The position numbers and the translations under genes were made by a program. The notes beneath the pieces are model-generated. The model did no database searches. It worked only from the letters and a program-made list of their open reading frames with translations, and was not told where the DNA came from. A DNA stretch of 64,000 nucleotides from the NCBI GenBank assembly GCA_963793425.1, contig CAWCAG010000003.1, positions 39,085 through 103,084 of the forward strand. The letters run 5' to 3'. Below, piece by piece: positions 1 through 15,746 of the stretch. The DNA comes from an uncultured cyanobacterium (GTDB taxonomy: Bacteria > Cyanobacteriota > Cyanobacteriia > Cyanobacteriales > CAWCAG01). The stretch's first letter is position 1. Each line of letters starts with the position of its first letter.

Positions 1-1110
1 GTGTAACCATCAACTGTAATTTGATAAGCTCCTGATTCAGTCAGGGTTATGGGAGTACTGTCACTGGCAGTGTTACCACTAAAGACCGACTCACCACTAG
101 GACTGCGAACTTCAACCCTGATACTACTATCACCATCACGGGGGTCGAAGTACAGAGTTTGACCAACTACTCCTGTGAGGGTGTAAGTATCCTGTTCACC
201 TAACTTAGTAATCTCTCCTATTACTAAATCGTTAGCCAACAAAGGTACTTCTGGTGAGGTGGTAACGACACGCTGCAAACTGTAGTTAACAGGAACATCA
301 CTTTCTCCCCGCAGCATTAGATAGTAATCACCATCTCCTGGTAGAACATATTCAAAGTCACTGCTGAGTCCAACTTCCCGAAGTTCATTATTGTTAGCAT
401 TGAATAAATGCCAGTTAGTAGTGGGAGTATTCTCTTGACTATCAAAGTAAACCCTTTCTCCTTCAGTACCAGTGAATTGATAGAACTTAATTGCTTTTGC
501 TTCTAAAGTACCCTGAGTCAAAGTTTCTACAGGTAATAAAGGAGCGTTATTAATATCACTAATGTCAAGTAACTGGAAACTATAATTCTCTCGTATATTC
601 TGTATTTCCATCAACAACTAGACTATATTCTCCTGCTTCAGGCAAGATAGCTGGAGTACGCTTACTATCTTCTTGTAACCGAGTATCAATAACTTTGTAC
701 CACTGGGACTAATTAAGGTAGCCTTGTATTGAGTGCATCTACAAGAGTGTCTAGGAAAAGTCGTTGCCCTTCACTACCTGTGAAGATATAAATATCCTGT
801 TCACCCTTTTCAACAATTTGACCAGAGGTGGGTGTATTCAAATTAAGGCGAAGATGTTTTCTGTAGGAGTAATTACCTCAAAGGAGTAGTTAACAGGATT
901 GAGTGCCATTAACCCCCCTAATTGCTAAGGTATAGGTATCCGTTGCATCAAGAACAAACTCCATATCATAATGCAAATTAGCATGGCTAATACGATTATT
1001 GCCTGAATCATAAAGAGTCCAAGTTGCCCCAGGTATACTACCAGGAGAATCTAGGAAGAGACGTTGTCCTTTACTACCTCCAAATTCATAGAAATGGGTC
1101 TCTTGCCAGG
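1..1110 (-). pseudogene. Frameshifted continuation of the giant surface protein (more PPC-like repeats), running off the window edge
   Basis: Alternative frames read QETHFYEFGGSKGQRLFLD, GEQDIYIFTGSEGQRLFLD, FYQFTGTEGERVYFD and GEQDTYTLTGVVGQTLYFD, the same repeat type as the end of ORF 1051..8802. Several single-base indels lie between about 590 and 1110. Confidence 0.85.
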
Positions 1111-4100
1111 ATCTAGAATGCCACTAATTACAGTATCAGTATTAATTTCTTCAGCTAAACCTAAATCAAAGATATTGAAACTGTAACTACCTGTCTCTTC
1201 TCCTGAAGCATCAATCTTGACTCGATAAGTACCACTTTCATCCAGGATAATTGGTTCTGGATCTCCACTATATTCAAAGTTACGAGTTAATACAGAGTGA
1301 CCACTAGGACTGATGATTGTTGCAGTATGTGACCAAGTAGCTGTTGTATCTTTAAACAAGCGGTCAAAGTAGATACGTTGTCCTGGAGTTCCTGTAAAAG
1401 TATAGAAATCTTCTTCGCCTTTTTCGACAATCTCCCCTAAAACGGTTTGAGAGTTATCATTATCTCCCAAATTCATAGGAGTTGTAACTTCAGTGGGAGT
1501 AATAATCTCAAAGGAGTAATCAACGCTGCTTGTGAAACTAGATTTTCCTCGCAGTGCTAACAAATATTCGCCATCTTTTGGCAAATAAACTTCCATGTCT
1601 CCGAAGTTGCCATTGGAGGTGACTAGGTTATTGTTAGCATCATACAAAACCCAATCTAAACTACCACTATTACTAATCTGGTCAAAGAAAAGTTTTTGCC
1701 CCGCATTGCCAGTGAAGCGGTGAACATCATCTTCAGAACCGGGGCTGAGTGTACCATAAATGACTTCATCAAAAGGCGCAATGGGAGTGAGGTTGTAGTC
1801 AATCACACTAAAACCATAACTGCCTGTATGATCTCCTACCGCATCAACTACAACGCGGTAATTTCCTGTTTCAGTTAGGTTAAGAATACTATTACTAATA
1901 AAATGGGTACTAAGTATCTCTTCCCCATTAGGACTATAAACTTTGAATCTCCAATCTCGATAGCTACCACTATATTGCAAGGGGTCGAAGTAGATACGCT
2001 GTCCTGCTACTCCACTAAAGCTAAATTCATCGTTTTCCCCTGGTAAGCTAGCACGTCCTAAGACTGTATCTCCCAGTACCAATACTGGGGGCGGTGTCCA
2101 TTCTGTGACCCCAGTGTCCGGATGTACTTTCATCCCTTCTGGCCCCAAAATCAAACTGTAGGTTAGGTTATCTTGGTCAGGGTCTTCCGCTTCTGAATCG
2201 TAGCTATAAAGTTGGTTAATCCAAGCGTCTACTTCTGGGGTTGAGGTGAAGACAGGAGGACGATTAGCAGGGTCTTCAACTACTGCTAAGGTGAAGGTTT
2301 GTAGGTCAATTCCACCTCTACCATCACTAACCCTAACTACCACACTATGGTTAGCAACGTCTGCTGTGGTAGGACTCCAAGTAATTAGTCCGGTGCTAAG
2401 GTCAATAGTTGCACCGTCGGGGGCTACTAATAATTCGTAGGTGAGGTTGTCTCCTTCTAAATCCTTGGCTTCTACATCATAGCTGTAAGGTAAACCTGCA
2501 ATTGCTTCAGTGTCAGCTTCGCTAGTGATACTAGGAGCAGAGTTCAAAGTAGAAAGTACTACCAAATCATAGGTAAACTGTATTCCTTCTGGATTGAAGA
2601 AGGTTAGAGTTTTAGTTTCTGTTATTTCGTTAAGGTCTAAAGAACCATTGTCAACTAGATGAGTGAAGTCAAAATAGGGCAAACCTTGAGGAGTTATACC
2701 ATCTGCATTAGCTACCTTAACACCAGGGTCACTAATTCCTTTGACTGCTACTAATAAAGGCCCATCTAAAGGATAAGAACCGTCGTTACGAATAGCTACA
2801 TCAGTGGAGAGGATATCATTTCCTTCATTGAAAGAGGTTTGCTGGTACTCTATTTCCGCGCTGGGTGAAACATCCGTAAGTTGAGTGAAGTCAATAGGCT
2901 CGTTGCTACTACTAATTTCTTGGGAAGGAACAGCAGCTACTTCTATACCGTCTCCTGGTATTAGTTCAATGTTGGTGATGCGTACTGAGGTGGTGGTGTC
3001 GCTATCATCGTTAACTAAGCGCAGGATTAATTTGGCTTCTGTATCAGCAGTTATCCCCGTCAGATTAACTTTGACAGTTTGACCATCAATTGTTACCCCT
3101 GGTGCTAAATCAGTGCTTTCTCCTTCTGTGATGTTGAAGAAAGCATCTTTGCCCTTACCAATGGTATGAACTAAAGGTTTTCCTTCCCCATCTACTAATG
3201 CTACTTCAAAGGCATCGTTGATAAAGCTGGGGTCGGTTGCGTCAAAGTTGAGGTCTGCAAAGGTAAAGGTTAAGACAGAAGAAGAGGCAGGAATGTTTAA
3301 ATCTTGTTCGTAACTAACACCAAAGTTTTCTTCTTCAATTAAAACAATATCGTTGGATAGGAGTTGGTCATCATCAACAATTGTGCCAATGCCTTCTCCA
3401 TCTTCAACTGTTGCTACGTTGGGATTAGCTAGGTTGAGAGTGAAGGTTTCATCAACTTCATCTACAGTATCGCTACTGATAGGTATGAGAATATCTTTAC
3501 TCGTTTCTCCTGGGGCGAAGGTGATTGTTCCACTAAAGGCTTGATAATCTTCCCCTGCAACGGCATCTCTATCCTGGGTGAAGTATTCTACGGTAACAGT
3601 TTCGGTGCTAGTTGCTGATAAAGTTACAGTAAACTGGGCATCGGTTGTACCTGTATCTCCTTCTACTACTGTGGCATCGCTAACGTTTAGTTGTAACGGC
3701 TGGGAGTCATCGTTGTCAACGATTGTAGCTACGCCTTCACTATCGGTTATTGTTCCGTTGGTAGGATTGGATAAAGTAACATTGAAGGTTTCATCTATTT
3801 CATCTACACTATCCCCTATTACTGGCACAGTGATGGTTTTGCTTGTTTCCCCTGGAGCAAAGGTTATTGTTCCGTTAGTAGCTTCATAGTCTTCCCCTAC
3901 AACTGCTGTGCCATCTGTAGTTGTGAAGTCTAGGGTTATATAGCGATCACTTGGCTCTGATAAACTAACGACAAATTCTGCTTGAGTTGTTCCTGTATCT
4001 CCTTCCGTGAGAGAAATATCTCCTACTGTAATGTCAGGATTGATTGGAGTAGTAACTGCCTGCCCCAAGATTACTAACTCGTAATCAAACTGTACTCCAT

Positions 4101-7100
4101 TGGGGTTGTGGAAACTGAGAGGCCTAACATCGTGAGGATCTGCGGCTTCTCCTGTCCATAAGTTTGTAAAGTCATAATAAGGCAAACCGTCAGGAGTAAC
4201 CCCATCAGCATTGACAACTTCTACTGAAGGGTCACTGATTCCTTTAACTGCTACTAATACAGGGCCGTCGAATTTCTGATACGGAGCCTCAAGCACAGAT
4301 ACTTCAGTCGAGAGAACTTCAGTTTTATCATTAAAAGAGGTCTGATGATACTCGACTAAAGCTTCTTGAGAGATATCTGAGAGTTGGAAAATATCAACTG
4401 GATTATTAGACAGGGGTGGTAGAGAACGATCATCAATAACAGGAGTATCATTTCCCTCAAATATCTCAATATTGGTAAGGTTTACTGAAGTAGTTGTGTC
4501 GTTATCATTGTTAAGTAGCCGGAAAACTAATTTAGCATCCGTGCCTGCGGTAATACCAGCTAAATTAACTTCAACAATATTCCTGTCACCTTTAAGAGTT
4601 ACTCCAGGAGGAGAGTGAGGATATTCCGCTTCGCTGAAGTTGAAGAAAGCATCGTTGTCTGTAGGAGTGTAAGCTAGCGCTCGACCCCAACTGCCAATAC
4701 TAGGAACTAAAGAATCACCGTTAGAATCGACTAAAGCTACTTCAAAAGCATCTTTTACAAACCCAGAATCTGAGGTATCAAAGTCGAGATCCGAGATAAA
4801 AAATCTTAGGGCTGAAGAGTCTGATGGGATATCAAAATTGTATTCAAAACCAGTATAAAAAGAGTTCCCCTCACTCAAGCTTACATCACTAATAGATAGT
4901 AGCAGAGGCCCTTGATCATCATTGTAAATTGTTCCCCAGCCTTGAGTAGAATAGGGAGAAAGAGCTGCATTGGTAGCATTGCTAAAATCAACGTAAAATT
5001 GCTCATCTGTTTCGTCTAACGTATCACCAATAACAGGTACAACTAAAGTCTGACTAGTTTCTCCTGGAGCAAAAGTTAGAGTTCCACTAACAGCCTGATA
5101 GTCTTCTCCTGCTGTAGCACTTGCATCATTAGTAATAAAGTCAACAGTTATAGTTTCGTCGCTAGCTTCCGACAGACTAACAACAAACTCTGCATTTGAT
5201 GTTCCTGTATCTCCCTCCAAAAGAGCAGAATGATCAATGTCAATAATTGGCCCATCATCAGTAATAATAGAACCCCAACCAGAGGAGTCGGTAATAATAG
5301 CACCACCAGCATTAGACAAGTTTACAGAGAAAGACTCATCTGTTTCGTCTAATTCGTCTCCAACAACTGGTACAACGAGAGTTTGTGTTGTTTCTCCTGG
5401 TGCAAAAGTTAGAGTTCCACTAACAGTCTGATAATCTTCTCCTGCTGTGGCTCCGTTATAGTGACTGGATGTATTAAAATCAACGGTAATCGGTTGAGAA
5501 CCTGCTTCAGATAGACTAACAGTAAATAAGGCATCAGTAGTACCTGTATCTCCTTCAGTTACAGAAACATTATCTATTGATAAAGCTAGGATTGCACCAT
5601 CGTTATTAAGAATAGTTCCTTGAGCAGCAGAATCAGCTACACTAGCGTTACTAGCGTTGTAGAGGTTAACACCGAATATTTCATCAGGTTCGCCTAGAGT
5701 ATCACCAATGATTGGTATGTTAATAGTTTGCGTTGTTTCACCTGGAGCAAAAGTTAGAGTTCCACTAACGAACTGATAATCTTCTCCTCGTGTGGCTTGA
5801 TTATAATAACTGAAGGTATTGAAATTGACGGTAACTGCCTGAGTACTAGCTTCAGATAAACTGACATCGAATAACGCATCAGTAGTACCTGTATCTCCTT
5901 CTACTGTCAAGACATCAGCTATTGATAAAGTTGGAGGCGAACCATCATCATTAAAAATAGTTCCTTGAGCAAAAGACTGAGTGATATTAGCATTGGTAGC
6001 ACCGTACAAGCTCACATTAAATGTTTCATCAAGCTCACCGGAAGTATCACCAATAATCGGTACAGAGATACTTTGAGTCGTTTCTCCTGGAGCGAAAGTC
6101 AAAGTACCGTTAACTGCTTGATAATCTTCTCCTGCTACAGCCTTGTTAGTAAAGCCATCTAAAGTGTTGAAGTTAACAGTGATTGGCTGAGTACTAGCTT
6201 CAGATAAACTGACATCAAATACTGCGTCAGTAGTACCTATATCTCCTTCTGCTGTAAAGGCATCAGTTATTGATAAAGTTGGTGGTGGAGCTTCGTCATT
6301 AAGGATAGTTCCCTGAGCAAAAGGTTGAGAGATACTAGCGTTAGTAGCTCCGTACAAACTAATGCCAAATGTTTCATCATATTCCCAAAGAGTATCACCA
6401 ATGACTGGCACAGTAATGCTTCGAGTTGTTTCACCTGGAGCGAAAGTAAGAGTACCGCTAACAGCTTGATAATCTTCTCCTGCTATAGCTCCATTAGAGT
6501 AACCGTTAGATGTGTTGAAGTTAACAGTGATTGGCTGAGTACCCGCTTCAGACAAAGTGACATCAAATACTGCATCAGTATTGTTTGCATCACCTTCGGT
6601 TACAGACACATCTGCTATAGATAAAGCTGGTGGTGAACCATCGTCGTTGAGAATAGTTCCTTGAGCATAGAAACTAGAGGCACTAGCATTCTTAACGCTG
6701 TAGTTAAGCCGAAATATTTCATCAAATTCACTTAAGGTATCGCCAATAACTGGTACGACAATACTTTTAGTTGTATCTCCTGGAGCAAAAGTTAGAGTTC
6801 CACTAACAGACTGATAATCTTCTCCTTCCGTAGCATCATTATCGTATGTAAAGAAGCTAACGGTAATCGGTTGAGCGCCTGCCTCAGATAAACTAACATC
6901 AAATACCGCATCGGTAGTTCCAGAATCACCTTCTGTTACAGATGTATCAGCTATTGACAAAACTGGAGGCAAACCATCATCGTTAAGAATAGTTCCTTGA
7001 GCGAAAGAAGTGGCAATATTAGCATTAGTTGCGCCATAAAGGCTAAGGTAAAATGTCTCGTCTGTTTCACCGAAAGTATCGCCAATAATGGGTACAAAAA

Positions 7101-8802
7101 TATTTTCACTTGTATCTCCTGGAGCAAAAGTTAAAGTGCCACTAACAACTTGATAGTCTTCTCCGTGAGTTGCACCAATACCGCTTATAGAATATTTTAC
7201 TGTTACCGTCTCACTACTTAATTCTGATAAACTAACTGTAAATCCTGCATTAGTAGTACCAGAATCCCCTTCTAAAATACTGACATTATTGATATTAATA
7301 TCAGGAACACTCACGTTAAGAAGTTCTACCTGAATTACTTCCCCACCTGAAAGAGTCAAAAGACCTATATCATTCTCCTGTTGCAGAGCAGTGATATCCC
7401 CAGCATCATAACTATCTTGAGTAACAACAGCAGCAAAGATTGCTCCTTCATCCCCAGGAGAATCAACCGAATTTAACTGAGAATCAAGATAATGACCTAA
7501 TTCTTCAAGAATAACTTTGCCAACAGCTTCAGGGTTATCGAGGTTTTGCTGGAGAAATTCTTCTGAAAGATAAATAGTACCTTCGCCAAAAGCACCATTA
7601 GCATTGAGGTCGTTAAAAGACACTACCTCAAAAGAAGGGAGTTCCTGCTTACTAACTATGTTACTGATTAAGTTAGAAGCAGTTTCTTCATCCCAGCTAT
7701 CTCCAAAAGCCAAGTTCAATCTTTGAACAAAATCTGGCTCAGCAACAAAGTCTTCTAATTGCTGGGAAACATAGTCAAAAGCTTGGGTGAGACTATCTTG
7801 GTACTCTTGGTCAAGATTAAAAGAAGCTAATACTTCATCAAAATCAGTTTCGATTTGGGACTCTGCATAGTTGAGGATCTCTGTACCTAATTCCCCTTCA
7901 CGCCAATCTAAGTCTGGATCTATAACCTCATCAAGCAGGGTAGCTTCTCCTGTTGCTCCCTTAACTTGGAAAATAATATCGTTGTAGTCTCCGTCAGAAG
8001 GGCCATCAACCCGCAAATCCTCTAAAGCAAAGGTATGACCATCACCAGTAACATCAGCTATTTGTCCAAAGTGAAAAGCATCTTCAGGGTTAGCTGTAGC
8101 TAGGGAAAATAGAGGAGTTTTTGCCCCAGCAAGGTCAGGATTAGCGACTACCTCTTCAACCCTGCCATTAGGAACCAACATAAAGCCAAACTCATCTCCT
8201 GGCTTCATGTTGAAGGTTTTAGCTCCTAAATACTCTCCTCGGTTGTAATTAGGTTCCCCTAATTCCCCACTAAACCTCGCCCCTTCCCCTCTATCAGAAA
8301 TGACAATATGGCCTAACTCTGAATCACTCAAAGCACGGCTAGCTGCCTGGGCAATAAACTCTGATGAACCAGCCTCAAGCTCCTCCATCCCTTCTAAGCT
8401 AAAGATGGCCAACTCTCCTTTATACCCACCGCCATCAAAGAGGAAATCAATCTCTACTTGCCCTGAGTCTCCCACTATGAAGTACCCAGAGGTAAAATTC
8501 GATTCTATTTGGACAAAATCGCTCCCATCATCTAACTCCTCTGGGTCGAAAAAGTCTAAGATTTCCGAACCATCGTCTCCTAATTCTTCATCAGCTACAG
8601 AAGCAATTTCTGCTAATTCTTCTACAAAATCAAAGTCATCTTGGTCTGGTAAATCAATTAAATCTGGTACATCATCCCCCCCATCTACTAATCCGGAGGG
8701 AGTCAGAATTGGTTCTAGAATAAAAGTCCGCAGCTTAGGCTTCTGTTCCTTAGCTTGCTTCTTTTTATCGTCTGGATTTTTGGAAGAGTTAAATAATCCC
8801 AT
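1051..8802 (-). CDS. Giant extracellular repeat protein or adhesin: LEP-type leader, DUF4114-like domain, 9 Calx-beta repeats, 2 Ig/cadherin-like repeats, PPC-like repeats
   Basis: N-terminal TFILEPILTPSG; FALEDLRVDGPSDGDYNDIIF; nine EGD.GTT...TLTFAPGET-type repeats; NSAPSITS and NRPPVFTS modules; GQRIYFD repeats. The stop at 1051 results from a frameshift. Confidence 0.85.
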   Translation of the reverse strand: MGLFNSSKNPDDKKKQAKEQKPKLRTFILEPILTPSGLVDGGDDVPDLIDLPDQDDFDFVEELAEIASVADEELGDDGSEILDFFDPEELDDGSDFVQIESNFTSGYFIVGDSGQVEIDFLFDGGGYKGELAIFSLEGMEELEAGSSEFIAQAASRALSDSELGHIVISDRGEGARFSGELGEPNYNRGEYLGAKTFNMKPGDEFGFMLVPNGRVEEVVANPDLAGAKTPLFSLATANPEDAFHFGQIADVTGDGHTFALEDLRVDGPSDGDYNDIIFQVKGATGEATLLDEVIDPDLDWREGELGTEILNYAESQIETDFDEVLASFNLDQEYQDSLTQAFDYVSQQLEDFVAEPDFVQRLNLAFGDSWDEETASNLISNIVSKQELPSFEVVSFNDLNANGAFGEGTIYLSEEFLQQNLDNPEAVGKVILEELGHYLDSQLNSVDSPGDEGAIFAAVVTQDSYDAGDITALQQENDIGLLTLSGGEVIQVELLNVSVPDININNVSILEGDSGTTNAGFTVSLSELSSETVTVKYSISGIGATHGEDYQVVSGTLTFAPGDTSENIFVPIIGDTFGETDETFYLSLYGATNANIATSFAQGTILNDDGLPPVLSIADTSVTEGDSGTTDAVFDVSLSEAGAQPITVSFFTYDNDATEGEDYQSVSGTLTFAPGDTTKSIVVPVIGDTLSEFDEIFRLNYSVKNASASSFYAQGTILNDDGSPPALSIADVSVTEGDANNTDAVFDVTLSEAGTQPITVNFNTSNGYSNGAIAGEDYQAVSGTLTFAPGETTRSITVPVIGDTLWEYDETFGISLYGATNASISQPFAQGTILNDEAPPPTLSITDAFTAEGDIGTTDAVFDVSLSEASTQPITVNFNTLDGFTNKAVAGEDYQAVNGTLTFAPGETTQSISVPIIGDTSGELDETFNVSLYGATNANITQSFAQGTIFNDDGSPPTLSIADVLTVEGDTGTTDALFDVSLSEASTQAVTVNFNTFSYYNQATRGEDYQFVSGTLTFAPGETTQTINIPIIGDTLGEPDEIFGVNLYNASNASVADSAAQGTILNNDGAILALSIDNVSVTEGDTGTTDALFTVSLSEAGSQPITVDFNTSSHYNGATAGEDYQTVSGTLTFAPGETTQTLVVPVVGDELDETDESFSVNLSNAGGAIITDSSGWGSIITDDGPIIDIDHSALLEGDTGTSNAEFVVSLSEASDETITVDFITNDASATAGEDYQAVSGTLTFAPGETSQTLVVPVIGDTLDETDEQFYVDFSNATNAALSPYSTQGWGTIYNDDQGPLLLSISDVSLSEGNSFYTGFEYNFDIPSDSSALRFFISDLDFDTSDSGFVKDAFEVALVDSNGDSLVPSIGSWGRALAYTPTDNDAFFNFSEAEYPHSPPGVTLKGDRNIVEVNLAGITAGTDAKLVFRLLNNDNDTTTSVNLTNIEIFEGNDTPVIDDRSLPPLSNNPVDIFQLSDISQEALVEYHQTSFNDKTEVLSTEVSVLEAPYQKFDGPVLVAVKGISDPSVEVVNADGVTPDGLPYYDFTNLWTGEAADPHDVRPLSFHNPNGVQFDYELVILGQAVTTPINPDITVGDISLTEGDTGTTQAEFVVSLSEPSDRYITLDFTTTDGTAVVGEDYEATNGTITFAPGETSKTITVPVIGDSVDEIDETFNVTLSNPTNGTITDSEGVATIVDNDDSQPLQLNVSDATVVEGDTGTTDAQFTVTLSATSTETVTVEYFTQDRDAVAGEDYQAFSGTITFAPGETSKDILIPISSDTVDEVDETFTLNLANPNVATVEDGEGIGTIVDDDQLLSNDIVLIEEENFGVSYEQDLNIPASSSVLTFTFADLNFDATDPSFINDAFEVALVDGEGKPLVHTIGKGKDAFFNITEGESTDLAPGVTIDGQTVKVNLTGITADTEAKLILRLVNDDSDTTTSVRITNIELIPGDGIEVAAVPSQEISSSNEPIDFTQLTDVSPSAEIEYQQTSFNEGNDILSTDVAIRNDGSYPLDGPLLVAVKGISDPGVKVANADGITPQGLPYFDFTHLVDNGSLDLNEITETKTLTFFNPEGIQFTYDLVVLSTLNSAPSITSEADTEAIAGLPYSYDVEAKDLEGDNLTYELLVAPDGATIDLSTGLITWSPTTADVANHSVVVRVSDGRGGIDLQTFTLAVVEDPANRPPVFTSTPEVDAWINQLYSYDSEAEDPDQDNLTYSLILGPEGMKVHPDTGVTEWTPPPVLVLGDTVLGRASLPGENDEFSFSGVAGQRIYFDPLQYSGSYRDWRFKVYSPNGEEILSTHFISNSILNLTETGNYRVVVDAVGDHTGSYGFSVIDYNLTPIAPFDEVIYGTLSPGSEDDVHRFTGNAGQKLFFDQISNSGSLDWVLYDANNNLVTSNGNFGDMEVYLPKDGEYLLALRGKSSFTSSVDYSFEIITPTEVTTPMNLGDNDNSQTVLGEIVEKGEEDFYTFTGTPGQRIYFDRLFKDTTATWSHTATIISPSGHSVLTRNFEYSGDPEPIILDESGTYRVKIDASGEETGSYSFNIFDLGLAEEINTDTVISGILDPGKRPISMNLEVVKDNVSS

Positions 8803-9140
8803 TGCTCAGATGCGATGATGAGTAGGTGCTGGAGTTAGGAATTATTCTAGGTTACAAGTACTTCAATCTCTGCCTTGGGAATTACGTAATGATACTACGG
8901 ATCTTTCTTTATTCGTACTTTCAAGTAACTGTAAAGCTCAATTACTTTTATTGTCTACCTCCTAGGAAGTAGTTAGGTTTCCCGCTTCTCTCCGTACTCT
9001 TTTAGCTTGCTCGTATAACCACTCAAATTAAGCTAAGAGCAAGGATTTTTGTCACAAAACTTATCCTCGGTCAGAGAATTTGGCGAACATTTTGAGAAAA
9101 CATGGGTTTATCTTAGGCTTAAAGTGCATTTACTTTCCCT

Positions 9141-10565
9141 ATGGCAATGAATCTAGCTGAAACTACTCTTAGCTACCACAAACAGCTATGTCCAGACTTA
9201 ACTACTTATTGGCAGTTAAGACACTCACCGGATTCAGAGGGGTTTTTCCTTAGAGCTAAAGGACTAAATCTCTGCCACAGCTTCAGCAGTAAAGAAGCTT
9301 TTGTCCTACAACACTTCAATGGCAAATGGACTGTAGATAAAATTCAAAAACGTTCTCAGAAGCATTTTTCTGGGCAAGTTTCTTCTAACTTCGTAGAAGA
9401 GTTACTAGAAAAGCTTGTCAGCTTAGACATTGTTGTACCAGCCTCAGAGTTAGAAGCTAGAGGAATACAACTTAAACCCTGCGTTGAATTCATTCTCCAT
9501 CCAGAGGGACATTGGATACTTCGCAACCCAGAAGACATTACCCACATACAGGTTTGTCCTCGTGGTAAAGCTATTGTAGAACAGTTGCAGGCATACTCCC
9601 CTGAAGAAATAGTTAAACAGGGAGAATTTCAACCAGCAGAAATCAAAGATATTTTAGGGCAGCTAAGAGTAACAGCTATGATAGCTGGAACTAAACCTCC
9701 TCAACCTCCGAAAAAGAAATTTAATCCCCTACAACTACTATTTTTCCGAGTCAAACTCTTTAACCCAGATCCCTACCTATTAACACCAGCCAAACTTCTA
9801 GCTTGGATTTGGACAAAGCCTTTCTTTTTAATACTTTGCGCCTTTCTCTCCTTATCAACAGTAGTTGGTTTGAACCACAGAGCGCACATCCTATTAACAG
9901 GACAAATACTCTGGCAAAACTACGGTGCAACCTTAATCATTCCCTTCGGTTTACTAGCTGTATTAGTTGTCACTATCCATGAATTAGGTCATGCCCTCAC
10001 CCTCAAACACTACAATGGCATCGTACCGGAAGTAGGTTTGCTGTTTATGTTTATGATGCCAGCAGCCTACACTAACACCAGCGATTCTTATTGTTTAGTT
10101 AAGCGTAGACAAAGAGTCTTTGTAGTTGGGGCAGGGATTTTAACTCAATTAACTGTAGGGGGAATCGCCTTTTGGTTGTGGCAGATTTCGGTAGAAAGCA
10201 GTTGGTTATATCAAAGCAGTTACTTACTACTCATTGCTGCTTTATTTACCATCGCTGTTAACCTCAATCCCCTAGCCAGATTTGATGGCTATCACTTACT
10301 GGTTGCTTTGACTGGCATTAATAATTTACGCAAACGTTCTTTTGACTATTATCGTAACTTATTTACCTTTACTCCCACAGAAGAACCAAAGCAAACTCAA
10401 CCTATTTTAGCTGCCTACGCTCCCTTTAGCTTTGCCTATATTATCTTCGTCTTCGGTAGTATCTTTCGTCTTATTATTCACTGGAGTTTAGACAACATTC
10501 CTATCACTGCTTTTTTGCTATTACTAGCATGGGCAATTTACTACTTTTTTCCTAGGCAACATTAG
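9141..10565 (+). CDS. M50 (site-2) family membrane metallopeptidase with two putative N-terminal PqqD/RRE-like domains
   Basis: HELGH and NLNPLARFDGY motifs with multiple hydrophobic helices. Two N-terminal repeats have a strand-then-helix pattern (EAFVLQHFNGKWTV...VEELLEKL; GKAIVEQL...IKDILGQL). Confidence 0.85.
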   Translation: MAMNLAETTLSYHKQLCPDLTTYWQLRHSPDSEGFFLRAKGLNLCHSFSSKEAFVLQHFNGKWTVDKIQKRSQKHFSGQVSSNFVEELLEKLVSLDIVVPASELEARGIQLKPCVEFILHPEGHWILRNPEDITHIQVCPRGKAIVEQLQAYSPEEIVKQGEFQPAEIKDILGQLRVTAMIAGTKPPQPPKKKFNPLQLLFFRVKLFNPDPYLLTPAKLLAWIWTKPFFLILCAFLSLSTVVGLNHRAHILLTGQILWQNYGATLIIPFGLLAVLVVTIHELGHALTLKHYNGIVPEVGLLFMFMMPAAYTNTSDSYCLVKRRQRVFVVGAGILTQLTVGGIAFWLWQISVESSWLYQSSYLLLIAALFTIAVNLNPLARFDGYHLLVALTGINNLRKRSFDYYRNLFTFTPTEEPKQTQPILAAYAPFSFAYIIFVFGSIFRLIIHWSLDNIPITAFLLLLAWAIYYFFPRQH

Positions 10566-10650
10566 CTGTTAGCTGTTAGCTATTCCCTACAGCCTACGGC
10601 AACGCATCCGCGAAACGCCAACCCTATTCCCTGTTCCCTGTTCCCAAAAA

Positions 10651-11997
10651 ATGATTAATAACTCAACTGATAAAAAACACCTTAGAGCAGTTAATCCTAA
10701 AACCCATTCTCCAACCCTTAAAAAACCAGAATCATCACCTCAGCCCACAGACAAAGCACCGCCACAAACTAAAAAGAAGTCCTACACAGGTTGGTTGATC
10801 TTTGGCAGTATTGTCATCGTTTTGGGAGCGGTTAGCCAAATTCCTATTTCTCCTACCGTTAGAGCAGATGCTTGGTTAGAACCAGACCCAGAAGCTAGAC
10901 AGGTTGTTCACATGGAAGTACCGGGGAAAATAACTGAGGTTTTAGTTAAACCAAATCAAAATATCGAACCTGGAGATGCCATTGCCATATTGGAAACTGA
11001 ACAATTAGAAGAAGAGATTATTGAGTGGGATTTACGGGTACAAGAAAGCTTATCTGGAGTAGAAAATGCTAATCAACAGGTAAGTAATGCTCAAGCAAAG
11101 ATCCAACAGACTCGCATTAATGAACAACAAATTCAAAATCGAGTAGCTAAACTACAGCAAGAAACTGAGCTTATGGAAGCTGGCTCTCTTCCTCCTCATC
11201 TTCAAGCTATTGAACAAGAAGTTACTACTCTGAAGCAAACCGTAGCTAGTTTAGACCAAACCATTAGCCGCTATCAAAGCTTAGTACAAGAGGGAGCCGT
11301 TTCTTATGAGCAAGTTAATGAACAAGAGCGGCACAAACTGAATGTACTAAGGCAAATATCTGACCAACAAGCAGAGATTGAAACTCATAAAAGACAGTTG
11401 TACAAACAATTGCAAAATAAACAAGAAGAACTCAACCATTTGCAAACTGCTACTGTCATAGCCCAACAGGAATTAGCGACGGCACAAACTCAAATTAAAA
11501 CTCAAGCTCCTATCTTACAGAAAGTTAAGCAACAAAGGGATAAGAAAAATGAGTTGCAAGCTAACTCTCAGGTAATCAGAGCTAGTCAAGGGGGAAAGAT
11601 TATTTCTCAAAACTTATACGCTTTAGAAGGGAAAACCTTAGAGCCAGGAGAACCGATTTTAGAAATAGCTCAACCTAATCAGTTAGTTGCTGTCATTGAA
11701 GTACGTCAAGAAGAAGCTGATTTAATCAAGGAGGGAGCAATAGTTACTTTTAATCCTGTAGAGCCGGGTTATGAAAGTTTCACTACTAATATTGAAGAGA
11801 TTATTGATGTTTTAGAAGTTGATGAACAATTGAAGAAATCCACTTTGCAGGTTATTGCTCAAGTTGAAACTAAAGGAAGCGATTTGAAGCCAGGAGCTAA
11901 AGTGTTTGCCAAGATTAAGTCTCCTCAACAAATTCGTCTTTATCAAAAGGTTTGGCGGGAGTTTCTTAACTTGTTTAAGATTCGCAAGTATTCTTAA
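10651..11997 (+). CDS. HlyD-like membrane fusion protein (periplasmic adaptor)
   Basis: Single N-terminal TM segment, lipoyl half-motifs (VPGKITEVLVKPNQNIEPGD; IRASQGGKI...LEPGEPILEI), long central coiled coil, C-terminal LKPG. Confidence 0.85.
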   Translation: MINNSTDKKHLRAVNPKTHSPTLKKPESSPQPTDKAPPQTKKKSYTGWLIFGSIVIVLGAVSQIPISPTVRADAWLEPDPEARQVVHMEVPGKITEVLVKPNQNIEPGDAIAILETEQLEEEIIEWDLRVQESLSGVENANQQVSNAQAKIQQTRINEQQIQNRVAKLQQETELMEAGSLPPHLQAIEQEVTTLKQTVASLDQTISRYQSLVQEGAVSYEQVNEQERHKLNVLRQISDQQAEIETHKRQLYKQLQNKQEELNHLQTATVIAQQELATAQTQIKTQAPILQKVKQQRDKKNELQANSQVIRASQGGKIISQNLYALEGKTLEPGEPILEIAQPNQLVAVIEVRQEEADLIKEGAIVTFNPVEPGYESFTTNIEEIIDVLEVDEQLKKSTLQVIAQVETKGSDLKPGAKVFAKIKSPQQIRLYQKVWREFLNLFKIRKYS

Positions 11998-12080
11998 ATG
12001 ATTGATACTTAGATAACTCTACTATTGTCGCAGACTAAATTAATAACTATTTGAACCTACCCATTTATCACTTTTTACCA

Positions 12081-15000
12081 ATGAATAAGCAGCTACCTTT
12101 ATCTTTGAGCTTAATCGCTTCGGTCTTAGCTAATTTCGCTCCTCAAATAGCTTTAGCTCAATCTATTGTCGCTACACCGGATAATACAGGTACGGTTATT
12201 CAATATAACGGCAATACTTATACGATTAATGGTGGTACTCAAGCAGGAGCAAACTTATTTCATAGTTTTGTTGAATTTGGACTATCTCCAGGAGAAATTG
12301 CCAGCTTTCTTAGCAACCCTAATATTAATAATATCTTAGGAAGAGTTACGGGAGGAAACCCTTCTTTAATAGAAGGTTTACTACAGGTAAGTGGTGGCAA
12401 TTCTAATCTCTTTTTGATGAATCCGGCAGGGATAGTTTTCGGTACTCAAGGAAGATTGGATGTACCCGGTAGTTTTATTGCCACCACAGCAGACAAAATT
12501 GGTTTTTCTGAGGATAGTTGGTTTAATTCTAGAGGTGATAATAATTATCAAAATTTAGTCGCTTCTCCGAGTAGCTTTGTTTTCACCCAGACTATCCCAG
12601 GTACAATTATCAACGCAGGTAATTTAACTACTTCCTTTGGTAACAACCTAAGTTTAGTCGGTGGCACTATTGTTAATACTGGAACTATCTCTGCATTGGG
12701 AGGAAATGTTACTCTGGCTGCTGTCCCAGGAGAAAACCTGGTACGCATTTCCCAAGCTGGCATGATCCTCGGCTTAGAAGTTTCCCCAGAATCCTTAACT
12801 AAAGGCATTTCACCTCTTGATTTACCCAAGTTATTAACTAACCCTAAAATCCGCAATGCTACCAAGTTGAAGTTAGACAGCAACGTCTTACCTAGGAATG
12901 TCACCATTGCTGGAGAAGTAAGAGGGCAAACAGTTAACTTTGCTGCTGCCAATAGAGTTATTCCCGTCTCTTCAGCTAAACAATTAGTATTTACTGGAGA
13001 TGGCACAAAAAGTTCGCCTACAGTGACTTTGTTTCCTCAAACTCCAGAAGATGCGTTCGCTTATGTTTTTATAGATGCTACAGTGCCAGATTATCAAAGT
13101 TTCTTATATGGAGGTAAACCGGGAACTACCAGTGTCGTAGTAACAGAGAATGAAAATGGCGTTGCTAAGATTAGCAGTACCCTCACCAACGTGACTGATT
13201 TAGAGGAATTGCACCTCCTTGTAGAGGGAGATGAAGGTAACTTTTGGTTGGGTAATACTTTCATCAGTAACCAAAACCTACAACAACATCAACAGAGCTT
13301 GCAAAGCTGGTCTAAATCTTTTGCTCCAGGAGCAGATATGCTTATTTATAGCTGTTTCACTGCTTTGGGGATAACTGGAGAAGCTTTGTTGCAGGGGATT
13401 GCTTCAACTACAGGAGCAGATGTAGCAGCTTCTACAAACCTAACAGGTGATGCTTTTTTAGGAGGAGATTGGGTTTTAGAAAAAAGTGTCGGCAACATCG
13501 AAGCAGATTTAGCTTTTCGTAACTTAGTATTAGATACTTTCCAAGGAAAGCTACAAGTCTTCACAGCTACTAATACTGCTGAATTAATTAACCACCTAAA
13601 CTCTAGTAATAGCAACGCACAAGACGACACTATCAACTTATTACCTAACATCACCTACACTATCAATGCTGTTGAAAACATTACCGATGGTAACAATGGC
13701 TTACCAATTATTCTTGCTGATGGAGGTAGGAGTATAACTATTAACAGTAAAGGCTCTACTTTAGCCAGAAGTAACATAGGAAGAACCCCTGATTTTCGCC
13801 TTCTCTATGTGGCAACAGGGGCAGATGTTACCCTCAATGATTTAACTATCAGCAATGGTAAAACCTCTGGTACAGTCTTTGCTGATGATGCTGCTGGTGG
13901 TGGCATTTTTAATCAGGGACAGTTGACTTTAAACAGAACTACTGTTGTTAGCAATGTCGCGACTAACAAGGGCGGTGGCATTTTTAATAGTGATAATAGC
14001 TCTCTAACTTTAACTCAGAGCAACATTGCTAATAACTCAGCCCTCAATTTCGGACAGGGGGGCGGCATTTACAACGGCAATAATAGTCTTCTTACAGTTA
14101 CTAATAGTACTATCGCTAATAACTCTGTTAACTCTAATGGTAATGGTGGTGGCATTTACAATACTCAAGATACAGTCACTATCAATGACAGCACTCTCAA
14201 GAACAACTCAGCAGAAGTTAGCGGTGGTGCTATTCATAGCAATGCAGGCATCTTAAATGTAACTAATAGCAGCATTGAGAATAACTCCAGTCAGTTTTTG
14301 GGAGGTGGCTTCCATAGCAGCAATAGCAGTCAAACGACTATTACAGGTAGTAACTTTATTAAAAACTCGGCTATTATTGGCGGTGCAATTAGTAACAACA
14401 AGAGCCAAGCTACTATTACCAACAGTAGTATTGATAGTAATACTACTCTTCCTAATGGCAACGGTGGTGGCATTGCCAACGATAGCGATAGTAGACTTAC
14501 CATTATGGGTAGTACCATCAGTAACAACTTAGCTAATGCTGGTGGTGGTATTTATAATCAGAGGAATAGTACAGCCACAATTACCAACACTACCATTAGT
14601 GGCAATCGTAGTAATGGTGCGGGAGGGGGCATTTCTAATAGCGATGCTAGTACCATTTCCTTAACTAACAGCACTGTTACTAATAACATTGCTGATGTTG
14701 ATGGCGATAATATTGGTGATGGAGGAGGCATTTTTAGCTTTAATTTCTCTACCTACATTGCCCGTAATAGCATTATCGCTGGTAACTCTGATGTGGGGGG
14801 ACAGGGGAATGATGTTTTTGGTGATAATCTCACTGGTGATGGTCATAATTTAATTGGTGATTTGACTGGCATAGGGACTAGTAGTTTGGGAGGTGGTAGT
14901 GATTTAACTTTTACTCAACTAGGAATTAGCGATATTGAACAAGTGCTTTTTCCCCTTGGTGGCTACGGCGGCTCTACCCAAACCCACGCCCTCCGCCCTG

Positions 15001-15746
15001 GTAGCCCTGCCCTTGATGCAGGGGATAATAATTTAGTTTCTGGAGGAATAACCACTGACCAAAGAGGTATGAATCGCTTTATGAGTAGTACTGTGGATAT
15101 CGGAGCTTACGAATCCTCCGGCTTTGCCCTCACAGTTGTAGCCGGAAGTCCCCAAACTACTGATGTTAATACTACCTTCTCTACTCCTCTTACAGTTCAA
15201 GTTACTGACCAAGCTTCTAACGCTCCTCTACCTTTAGATAGTTCAGTTGTTACCTTCAGTCTTTCTAGTCAAGGGTTTGGCACTTTGAGGAGCGGCACAG
15301 CCGTCACAACCGACACTCAAGGCAAAGCTAGTAATACCCTTACAGCTAGTAATCTTCCTGGTAGCTATCAAGTAACTGCTTCTCTTTCTGGTTCGGCTAC
15401 AGTTGATTTTCAACTCACTAACAAGCCATCTCTCCCTCCTCCCAACAGGCCAATACCTATTGACAATCAGCCCCCCATTACAAATAATGACCAATCAAAC
15501 CTTATTTCTCCTCCAGAATCAGATACTATTTCTCACTCTCAACCAATACCTGAAGCCATACCAAAAGTTTCCCTTACCTGCACAGATGAGGTTATTTCTC
15601 AACTTCCTCATTCTGAGTTTTTGTCTGCCGTCACAAACTCAGGAAGCTTACCAGATAAGCAGTTATTAACAGAGCTAGAGGAGTTATTGCAAAGTTGTCA
15701 TTTTCCTTATTTTGATGACAATCACAGTACAATCTCGAACCCCTGA
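12081..15746 (+). CDS. Filamentous-haemagglutinin N-terminal domain exoprotein with DUF4347-like domain, GGGIxN beta-helix repeats, choice-of-anchor Q-like and Ig-like domains
   Basis: Signal peptide ending ALA-Q; NLFHSF and NLFLMNPAGIVFG; ADMLIYSC...GGDWVLE; many GGGIYN repeats; THALRPGSPALDAG...DQRG...VDIGAYE. ATG at 12081 preferred over TTG at 12051. Confidence 0.85.
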   Translation: MNKQLPLSLSLIASVLANFAPQIALAQSIVATPDNTGTVIQYNGNTYTINGGTQAGANLFHSFVEFGLSPGEIASFLSNPNINNILGRVTGGNPSLIEGLLQVSGGNSNLFLMNPAGIVFGTQGRLDVPGSFIATTADKIGFSEDSWFNSRGDNNYQNLVASPSSFVFTQTIPGTIINAGNLTTSFGNNLSLVGGTIVNTGTISALGGNVTLAAVPGENLVRISQAGMILGLEVSPESLTKGISPLDLPKLLTNPKIRNATKLKLDSNVLPRNVTIAGEVRGQTVNFAAANRVIPVSSAKQLVFTGDGTKSSPTVTLFPQTPEDAFAYVFIDATVPDYQSFLYGGKPGTTSVVVTENENGVAKISSTLTNVTDLEELHLLVEGDEGNFWLGNTFISNQNLQQHQQSLQSWSKSFAPGADMLIYSCFTALGITGEALLQGIASTTGADVAASTNLTGDAFLGGDWVLEKSVGNIEADLAFRNLVLDTFQGKLQVFTATNTAELINHLNSSNSNAQDDTINLLPNITYTINAVENITDGNNGLPIILADGGRSITINSKGSTLARSNIGRTPDFRLLYVATGADVTLNDLTISNGKTSGTVFADDAAGGGIFNQGQLTLNRTTVVSNVATNKGGGIFNSDNSSLTLTQSNIANNSALNFGQGGGIYNGNNSLLTVTNSTIANNSVNSNGNGGGIYNTQDTVTINDSTLKNNSAEVSGGAIHSNAGILNVTNSSIENNSSQFLGGGFHSSNSSQTTITGSNFIKNSAIIGGAISNNKSQATITNSSIDSNTTLPNGNGGGIANDSDSRLTIMGSTISNNLANAGGGIYNQRNSTATITNTTISGNRSNGAGGGISNSDASTISLTNSTVTNNIADVDGDNIGDGGGIFSFNFSTYIARNSIIAGNSDVGGQGNDVFGDNLTGDGHNLIGDLTGIGTSSLGGGSDLTFTQLGISDIEQVLFPLGGYGGSTQTHALRPGSPALDAGDNNLVSGGITTDQRGMNRFMSSTVDIGAYESSGFALTVVAGSPQTTDVNTTFSTPLTVQVTDQASNAPLPLDSSVVTFSLSSQGFGTLRSGTAVTTDTQGKASNTLTASNLPGSYQVTASLSGSATVDFQLTNKPSLPPPNRPIPIDNQPPITNNDQSNLISPPESDTISHSQPIPEAIPKVSLTCTDEVISQLPHSEFLSAVTNSGSLPDKQLLTELEELLQSCHFPYFDDNHSTISNP

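Follow-up and report, generated by a model that had tools for sequence, protein, structure and literature searches.

Giant toxin-like proteins of cyanobacteria share an N-terminal tag that a membrane protease with RRE domains may read

In a 64,000-nucleotide stretch of DNA from an uncultured cyanobacterium (GenBank assembly GCA_963793425.1, contig CAWCAG010000003.1, positions 39,085 to 103,084; the whole stretch is called the window), the gene for a giant protein without a Sec signal lies divergently from two genes that encode an M50 intramembrane metalloprotease and a HlyD-type periplasmic adaptor. The protease carries two N-terminal domains of the RiPP (ribosomally made peptide with post-translational modifications) recognition element (RRE) type, and the giant protein begins with a tag that recurs on giant proteins of other cyanobacteria. 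We consider it probable, at roughly 0.6, that this protease (RRE-M50) is both receptor and peptidase of the tag in a Sec-independent route for giant polymorphic-toxin-like proteins in filamentous cyanobacteria, in which HlyD, where present, serves as the periplasmic conduit. Cleavage of the tag, export and its direction, and binding of the tag by the RREs are what we infer from the sequences and from structural models.

The N-terminal tag and its cargo proteins

The first part of the cargo gene is a 2583-amino-acid open reading frame (ORF) on the minus strand (1051 to 8802), composed in order of tag, acidic linker, DUF4114, nine Calx-beta stretches, He_PIG, and PPC-like repeats; in Pfam searches, Calx-beta scored 417.6 bits in 9 stretches, and DUF4114 and He_PIG were likewise matched. 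The product starts MGLFNSSKNPDDKKKQAKEQKPKLRTFILEPILTPSGLVDGGDD, with a basic stretch and then TFILEPILTPSG. The tag comprises residues 1 to 44 (8671 to 8802, minus strand) and contains a hydrophobic cap (MGLF), the basic stretch, the TFILEPILTPSG box, and LVDGGDD. Its core box, T-F-I-L-E-P-I-L-T-P-S-G, spans residues 26 to 37 (8692 to 8727, minus strand) and is the putative RRE-binding strand. The highest 12-residue mean of Kyte-Doolittle hydropathy within the first 80 amino acids was 1.33, compared to 2.12 for the signal peptide of a neighboring two-partner secretion (TPS) domain protein and 2.74 for the membrane helix of HlyD. The initial annotation of the window had described a giant protein that lacks a Sec signal and opens with a basic stretch before this motif, and both the sequence and the hydropathy values agree with that description. 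A Sec or Tat signal was rejected as a reading of the tag because there is no hydrophobic core.

A tag profile (alignment A1) was built from 16 sequences of M50-adjacent genes, in which L29 and P35 are invariant and S36 is nearly so. A database search with this profile returned 134 proteins at E ≤ 0.01 among 8,000 candidates scored. Every organism-named protein among the 120 matches listed was cyanobacterial, with hosts including Microcoleus, Tychonema, Nostoc, Anabaena, Calothrix, Desmonostoc, Trichocoleus, Spirulinaceae, and Halothece, and none of the 120 had a Sec-like hydrophobic core by hydropathy. The box was found in 118 of them and begins at residue 27 to 35 in 109; its consensus is K-[ST]-F-I-L-E-x-I-[VIL]-T-P-S, with L at 100%, I at 99%, T at 99%, P at 100%, and S at 100%. 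The tag as a whole measures about 45 residues: a hydrophobic cap, which is short, comes first, then approximately 25 residues of basic stretch, the box, a Gly-rich turn, and a strongly acidic linker. N-termini of the 120 listed proteins were mainly MGWL, MSLF, MGWH, or MGLF, and their median net charge was +8 before the box and −8 over the 60 residues after it. Positions +11 and +12 after the box are glycine in 61% and 78% of the 118 tags, respectively. A double-glycine leader was rejected because the spacing of the conserved residues does not fit the double-glycine consensus and no C39 domain lies nearby.

The tags had also been likened to the LEPR-type motifs of planctomycetes, and as a resemblance this is reasonable: LEPR-XLL proteins, too, are giant, probably extracellular, and devoid of a Sec signal, with a short L-E-P-centered motif close to the N-terminus. 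Membership in LEPR-XLL did not hold up, however, at the level of sequence models. The core here is I-L-E-x-I-x-T-P-S, and at E ≤ 10 none of the 16 tags was matched by an NCBIfam model or by any meaningful Pfam model, in a search where HMMER filters may hide very weak matches.

Tagged proteins span 1,000 to 7,000 residues. Among the 120 listed, a hand count gave 70 with an S8 peptidase domain, 21 with dockerin/cadherin-type domains, and 10 with DUF4114. Twelve examples scanned with Pfam showed the tag followed by S8 (approximately residues 150 to 406) and then by CHAP, SH3, LGFP, or PPC, and ended in a C-terminal Colicin_E5, Ntox50, Ntox44, Ntox30, AHH, EndoU, Pesticin, or M23 domain. Judged by sequence, this domain order is that of polymorphic toxins, with immunity a predicted function. 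Published passages on DUF4114 concern pilus-related motility and the phosphate stimulon, not secretion.

Within the window, a second minus-strand ORF of 4554 amino acids starts at 3 to 617 and runs off the window; it shares the PPC-like repeats of the first ORF and also contains Ig and cadherin domains, 18 RHS repeats, and the Rhs core end. The ORF behind it encodes membrane helices plus ankyrin repeats, a kind that often serves as an immunity protein, and is a likely immunity gene. The Rhs ORF itself ends, just beyond the window start (locus L090, G000:C3:24000-39800), in a Gly-rich C-terminal domain of approximately 250 amino acids with no Pfam match. Between 617 and 1051, at least three reading-frame changes split the cargo ORF from the Rhs ORF. 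Contigs from public short reads (four runs, one study) are in mutual accord and depart from the window at six 1-base indels, at 593, 696, 724, 843, 901, and 1104, and they also share many substitutions relative to the window around 590 to 1110. The six indels net +2, a shift that by frame arithmetic would bring 1051 to 8802 and the Rhs ORF into one frame. The two ORFs are probably one gene, and their split may be an assembly artifact or a strain difference.

The RRE-bearing protease and its association with the tag

The protease gene (9141 to 10565, plus strand) encodes 474 amino acids and matches Pfam Peptidase_M50 with 30.2 bits against a cut-off of 27.2. In an alignment of 28 homologues (A2), H280, E281, H284, N376, P377, and D382 are invariant, as is G283; the HELGH zinc-binding and catalytic motif, which includes four of these residues (H280, E281, G283, and H284), lies at 9978 to 9992 on the plus strand. 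A full-length AlphaFold2 (AF2) model with a predicted local distance difference test score (pLDDT) of 85.7 was matched by Foldseek to the site-2 protease MjS2P (3b4r) and to SpoIVFB in complex with pro-sigma-K (8vjl), each with probability 1.00. By its HExxH and NxxPxxxxDG motifs and its modeled S2P core fold, the protein is an M50/site-2-type intramembrane metalloprotease. The nearest NCBIfam models are those of RiPP proteases: daptide_HExxH (NF041824) scored 141.2 bits over residues 136 to 465, below its cut-off of 300, and the YydH/LiaK type scored 50 bits.

The N-terminus of the protease (residues 1 to 192) was modeled separately with AF2 at a pLDDT of 89.6 and contains two copies of a unit of three strands and three helices. 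Domain 1 covers residues 24 to 94 (9210 to 9422, plus strand), with strands at 24-28, 35-39, and 45-48 and helices at 50-56, 65-75, and 84-94. Domain 2 covers residues 116 to 177 (9486 to 9671, plus strand), with strands at 116-119, 125-129, and 134-138 and helices at 140-151, 154-160, and 165-177. All 28 homologues in the alignment have domain 2, and domain 1 is missing from the short M50 proteins of one genus (g3). The top Foldseek matches of this region were RiPP leader-binding proteins, namely, ThcOx (E of 2e-5), TbiB1 with its leader (5v1u; template modeling [TM] score of 0.66 to 0.68), TigE, LynD/TruD, a lasso peptide B1 protein (6jx3; TM of 0.69), PqqD (5sxy; TM of 0.59), and the RRE of PbtF. 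ThcOx itself has tandem RREs. Based on the model, the N-terminus of the protease is a tandem of RRE/PqqD modules with the leader-binding fold. The initial annotation had suspected exactly this of two small N-terminal repeat domains in an M50 peptidase divergent from the giant gene and followed by HlyD, and the arrangement and the fold were both recovered by Pfam and the AF2 model.

Association of tag and protease was surveyed in 401 genomes of the cyanobacterial phylum, 38 of which contain an M50 match at E ≤ 1e-10. A set of 34 loci was assembled from 32 strong M50 matches, each with about 9 kb on either side, and the 2 loci of the organism's own genome. In 19 of the 34, the fetched flank includes a tag-bearing gene. 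The other 15 include two M50 genes at contig ends, one beside an insertion sequence, and one broken M50 plus HlyD; the flank of another locus (L053) holds only a doubtful divergent tag. Across genomes, the tag profile matches 25 of the 401, and 24 of these 25 also carry the cyanobacterial M50 clade, itself present in 29 genomes. Of the 363 genomes that lack an M50 match, one has a tag match, a weak one (E of 1.8e-4, 24 of 68 positions, in a 74-amino-acid frame). The association of tag and M50 is beyond chance, and the co-occurrence that the initial annotation had called for is thus present for this pair. Several genomes have many tags and a single M50 match, with eight tags in G190, five in G344, four in G328, and three in G008, and the sequences suggest that there one protease serves many distant cargoes.

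The organism's own genome has exactly two M50 copies of the clade and exactly two matches to the tag profile, and each tag-bearing gene adjoins an M50-HlyD pair. The second M50, on contig C6, is 50% identical to that of the window (contig C3) and is followed by HlyD. Divergent from it is a 1662-amino-acid ORF that begins MALPENKSSRSSNSKIQAFILEPILTPSGLLDGGDDG and is composed, in order, of the tag, DUF4114, S8, LGFP, SH3, and a terminal M23 domain. Both contigs are plasmid-like, and both carry cargo, M50, and HlyD without a pump.

The same data bear on whether the giants are bystanders of an M50-HlyD pair that handles a small RiPP or bacteriocin or takes part in site-2 signaling. The NCBIfam neighbors of the protease are of the RiPP kind, and loci of distant M50 relatives look like RiPP clusters. 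Tag and protease nevertheless go together in nearly all tag-bearing genomes and in over half of the loci, with varied cargo domains. No conserved small precursor gene or modifying enzyme occurs in the 34 loci, and in most of them no anti-sigma or sigma pair adjoins. We regard an unrelated adjacency as very improbable.

The distant relatives just mentioned (L066 to L069, from other classes of the phylum) have a single RRE and adjoin genes for a Nif11-like small peptide and a radical-SAM enzyme, which fits a descent of the M50 from RiPP leader peptidases. A further M50 family of about 870 amino acids with an RRE-like N-terminus is widespread in the Actinomycetota, in Solirubrobacterales, Frankiales, Micromonospora, and Arthrobacter (L093 to L172); among 10 of its 80 loci that were viewed, no neighbor was common to more than two. 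One protein (P0288), considered as a fused form from other Gram-negative phyla, proved to belong to this family, with 871 amino acids.

HlyD, the missing motor, and competing explanations

The HlyD gene (10651 to 11997, plus strand) encodes 448 amino acids. HlyD_D23 (45.8 bits) and HlyD_3 (39.6 bits) both exceeded their Pfam cut-offs, and the protein is, by sequence, a member of the HlyD/membrane-fusion family, in which a cytoplasmic N-tail that carries a conserved L-x-V-x-P precedes a single membrane helix, and the barrel-sandwich, coiled-coil hairpin, and beta-barrel parts of the family come after it; the coiled coil is long and matches SMC-type NCBIfam models. The N-tail consensus among M50-linked HlyD proteins (alignment A4) is L-K-V-V-P-P, represented in the window by LRAVNP at residues 11 to 16 (10681 to 10698), and is a possible docking site for M50 or cargo. 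True members scored more than 500 bits with the A4 profile, and generic adaptors did not exceed 117 bits. HlyD directly follows M50 in 18 of the 34 loci. In one genus (g4), it lies away from M50 and beside distant tagged giants, which we count as HlyD going with the cargo.

The two proteins are fused in some species. The cyanobacteria Coleofasciculus (strain PCC 7420 among them) and Trichocoleus have proteins of 915 to 996 amino acids that share about 50% identity with the whole M50, and residues 574 to 985 of one of them (P0252) aligned with the system HlyD profile at an hhalign probability of 100 (E of 5e-68). These fusions argue for a direct physical coupling of protease and adaptor, and they fit an N-in, C-in topology of M50. 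The L-K-V-V-P-P tail is absent from the fusion proteins.

In the mechanism that we favor, the cytoplasmic RRE domain or domains of the membrane-bound M50 would capture the box as an added beta-strand, as the RREs of RiPP enzymes do with leader peptides. Capture would deliver the stretch next to the box to the HExxH site, on the cytoplasmic side of the membrane, and the tag would be cut off there in the way that SpoIVFB removes the pro-sequence from pro-sigma-K. HlyD, where present, would be coupled to M50 and form a conduit through the periplasm toward an outer-membrane channel encoded elsewhere. No candidate motor for such a route was found in linkage with the locus.

Several observations weigh against the RRE-M50 as receptor and peptidase of an export route. 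The Pfam PqqD model does not match the protease, for which Peptidase_M50 is the sole Pfam match at E ≤ 0.01. The overlap of tag and M50 across genomes is partly circular because the tag profile was built from M50-adjacent genes: 14 of the 24 genomes with both supplied sequences to the profile, and 10 did not. No tag was found in 5 of the 29 genomes of the M50 clade; in these, M50 lies at a contig end (G005), M50 and HlyD are broken (G083), M50 is a fragment only (G212), the only tag is doubtful and divergent (G089), or there is none (G095). A system-type HlyD is not beside M50 in 16 of the 34 loci, and the A4 profile did not find it in five genomes of genus g3 or in three of family f6 (G104, G284, and G144), all of which keep tag and M50. 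In these lineages, M50 is directly followed by a small protein with a signal peptide and PEP-CTERM (L054 to L062, L046, L048, and L050). The initial annotation had paired the tag with M50 and HlyD together; M50 stood this comparison, and HlyD did so only in part. Finally, Pfam detected no ATP-binding cassette (ABC) ATPase on either contig of the system (C3 and C6), the single C39 match of the genome lies far from the system on contig C7, and no second SecA_DEAD protein was found in the own genome or in five other system genomes (one match each), which have the canonical SecA only.

The best HlyD matches of genus g3 (108 to 117 bits) were rejected as system HlyD, being CusB-like and situated beside resistance-nodulation-division pumps at the three loci inspected. 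The PEP-CTERM proteins behind M50 have 225 to 233 amino acids in g3 and 115 to 145 in f6; on an f6 member, the Pfam PEP-CTERM match was weak (E of 5e-4, 20.4 bits against a cut-off of 20.7), and no other Pfam match was found in the two members scanned. The SecA_DEAD matches of the own genome fall at one locus (G000:C9:579694-580862) in two adjacent pieces of 282 and 688 amino acids in different frames, and a frameshift, be it genuine or an assembly error, could be the cause.

The lack of a linked motor admits an explanation in which the RRE-M50 is concerned with maturation only. It would remove an intracellular pro-peptide or tether, while export would fall to unlinked general machinery, for example, TolC and a chromosomal ABC pump of type I, or a TpsB/Omp85 partner, and HlyD would serve the pump instead of forming a channel with M50. 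The genome offers such parts: it has 52 ABC_tran matches and three matches to OEP, the family of TolC-type proteins. None of these is on C3 or C6, the OEP genes sit on the chromosome-size contig C5, and neither family was matched among the 46 window ORFs scanned, in keeping with the initial annotation, which had seen no ABC ATPase or TolC gene in the window. The dispensability of HlyD in some lineages and the TPS and TPS-POTRA-ShlB genes near several cargo genes also speak for maturation alone, as does the fact that known RiPP M50 enzymes are leader peptidases (PMC10885120). Against it stand the fusions, with the direct coupling of protease and adaptor that they imply, and the two plasmid-like contigs on which cargo, M50, and HlyD travel without a pump. 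Moreover, no candidate pump co-varies with the system in the 34 loci, where an ABC ATPase is present in four and never adjacent to M50. Maturation alone is possible, if not probable, and we prefer the RRE-M50 as part of the route itself.

A stronger form of that route, advanced in the initial annotation, makes M50 receptor, peptidase, and inner-membrane channel at once and, with HlyD and a TolC-like channel, an ABC-independent exporter resembling type I secretion. The lack of an ABC ATPase on both contigs and the existence of M50-HlyD fusions agree with it, and it resembles proposals made for a SecA_DEAD/M50/HlyD module (PMC4452313), for PrsW-linked toxins (PMC3482391), and for EpeP (PMC10885120). 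Such an exporter would, however, lack an evident energy source, the cyanobacterial form being without even the second SecA of the published module; cargo of thousands of residues would have to cross a six-helix protease; and tag and M50 persist in the g3 and f6 lineages although HlyD is missing. We consider it quite unlikely that M50 is itself the channel.

Overall, the initial interpretation is partly supported: it was right on the RRE fold and on the partnership of tag and protease, and the replacement of an ABC pump by M50 is speculative, an idea already in print for the related module (PMC4452313). Whether RRE-M50, with or without HlyD, amounts to a further mode by which polymorphic toxins and giant surface proteins are trafficked, in which a co-opted RiPP leader-peptidase module, in direct contact with a periplasmic adaptor, would read and cut the tag and pass the protein outward without an ABC pump or second SecA, seems to us doubtful. 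With equal reserve, we note that such a mode would stand apart from the eight listed in 2012.

Gene neighborhood, related systems, and implications

The cargo gene and the M50-HlyD operon are separated by a divergent intergenic spacer of 338 nucleotides (8803 to 9140), in which a repeat search found no repeat of note. In three of the four public runs, contigs lack 452 bases that cover part of this spacer and the M50 start (8838 to 9291); their probable source is a related strain or the paralogous locus. For positions 501 to 10500, four DNA metagenome runs of one study and no RNA run are listed. Directly downstream of HlyD lies a gene (12051 to 15746, plus strand) for a TPS-domain/DUF4347/beta-helix protein with a Sec signal, which matched Pfam TPS with 142 bits and DUF4347 with 161 bits. 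TPS genes also occur near tagged giants on C6 (C6:27042-30902) and in genus g4 (L077:14033-18424), where TPS domain, POTRA, and ShlB-type barrel are combined in a single 1463-amino-acid protein, which is followed by a CHAT-TPR protein. Membership of the TPS-domain protein in the system is uncertain; because the genome holds at least 12 TPS paralogues, its adjacency may be due to chance.

A GT4 glycosyltransferase gene was seen in 6 of the 34 loci, immediately upstream of M50 in two (L032:157-1320 and C6:18098-19303) and elsewhere in the locus in four (L039, L043, L055, and L060); that the invariant T-P-S of the tag might be a glycosylation site is pure speculation. Calpain-type C2 peptidase domains and a gene for a SurA-like chaperone stand beside tagged giants in L039, L047, and L053. 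The rest of the window (16746 to 64000) has plasmid-like content, with three ParA genes, a MobA/VirD2 relaxase, DUF3854, HEPN, AbiEii, several DDE_3 transposases, and a type I restriction-modification system broken up by a transposase.

Among known systems, RRE-fused M50 peptidases of RiPP pathways (daptide, NF041824; YydH/EpeP/LiaK, NF058609) share with the cyanobacterial protein an N-terminal RRE-type domain ahead of an HExxH/NxxPxxxxDG membrane protease. The cyanobacterial protein differs in scoring below the daptide cut-off, in having two RREs, and in being without modifying enzymes; its partner is HlyD or a PEP-CTERM protein, and its proposed substrates are giants, whereas the RiPP enzymes act on peptides. 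A 2023 review of RiPP proteases records the M50 enzymes TglG, TmoG, and EpeP, the last of which is thought to cut and export its peptide (PMC10885120).

The published module closest to the locus was described by Kamneva et al. (2015), whose passages on it list, for five other phyla, a secondary SecA_DEAD, M50/HlyD, HlyD, and GAF-HlyD proteins but no ABC transporter, and suggest that M50 might form a membrane pore (PMC4452313). Those passages name no substrate, tag, or RRE, and Cyanobacteria are not among the phyla that they name (PMC4452313). Both systems couple M50 to HlyD, as the cyanobacterial fusions do outright, and both are without an ABC transporter in the locus. The cyanobacteria have no second SecA_DEAD, however, and M50 and HlyD are usually separate genes.

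In peptidase-containing ABC transporters (PCATs) with double-glycine leaders, HlyD, and TolC, there are likewise an N-terminal leader, a dedicated membrane peptidase, and a HlyD-type adaptor, and in the cyanobacterial proteins Gly-Gly often follows the box; the cyanobacterial locus is without C39 and ABC ATPase, and its protease is a metallo-intramembrane enzyme. Type I secretion differs in the same way, as no dedicated ABC transporter accompanies the cyanobacterial locus and its HlyD falls outside TIGR01843, with 24.3 bits against a cut-off of 208.65. SpoIVFB is an M50 protease that cuts a short N-terminal pro-sequence from the soluble pro-sigma-K at the cytoplasmic membrane face. Its structure is among the top matches of the window M50, but it has a C-terminal CBS domain and no RRE, and its product is a cytoplasmic sigma factor that is not exported.

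For polymorphic toxins, Zhang et al. (2012) listed eight trafficking modes, of which the PrsW-dependent route is nearest to the one considered here; PrsW was proposed to process and extrude such toxins, including Rhs-containing ones (PMC3482391). The terms M50, HlyD, site-2, and DUF4114 do not occur in the first 300,000 characters of that text (PMC3482391). Both routes tie a multi-pass membrane peptidase to polymorphic toxins, but PrsW is fused to the toxin N-terminus and is unrelated to M50, whereas the cyanobacterial protease is a separate gene product that would read its tag through an RRE. Literature searches, which covered main texts, found nothing on a cyanobacterial tag/M50/HlyD system, and as far as they reach, the toxin cargo of the split cyanobacterial M50 and HlyD form is new.

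The release of very large proteins without a Sec signal by filamentous cyanobacteria is poorly understood, and to our knowledge their polymorphic toxins of the Rhs and S8 types have yet to be given a trafficking route. The locus offers four testable components: a tag with five near-invariant positions, a putative tandem RRE receptor, a protease whose catalytic residues are intact, and an adaptor that is fused to it in some species. It links to the SecA_DEAD/M50/HlyD module of other phyla and may help to tell the essential parts of that module from the rest. If the proposed reading is true, the tag could be used for export in cyanobacterial biotechnology, and a simple sequence rule would predict one class of cyanobacterial exoproteins and toxins. 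Leader recognition by RREs would then extend beyond small peptides and take in proteins that are thousands of residues long.

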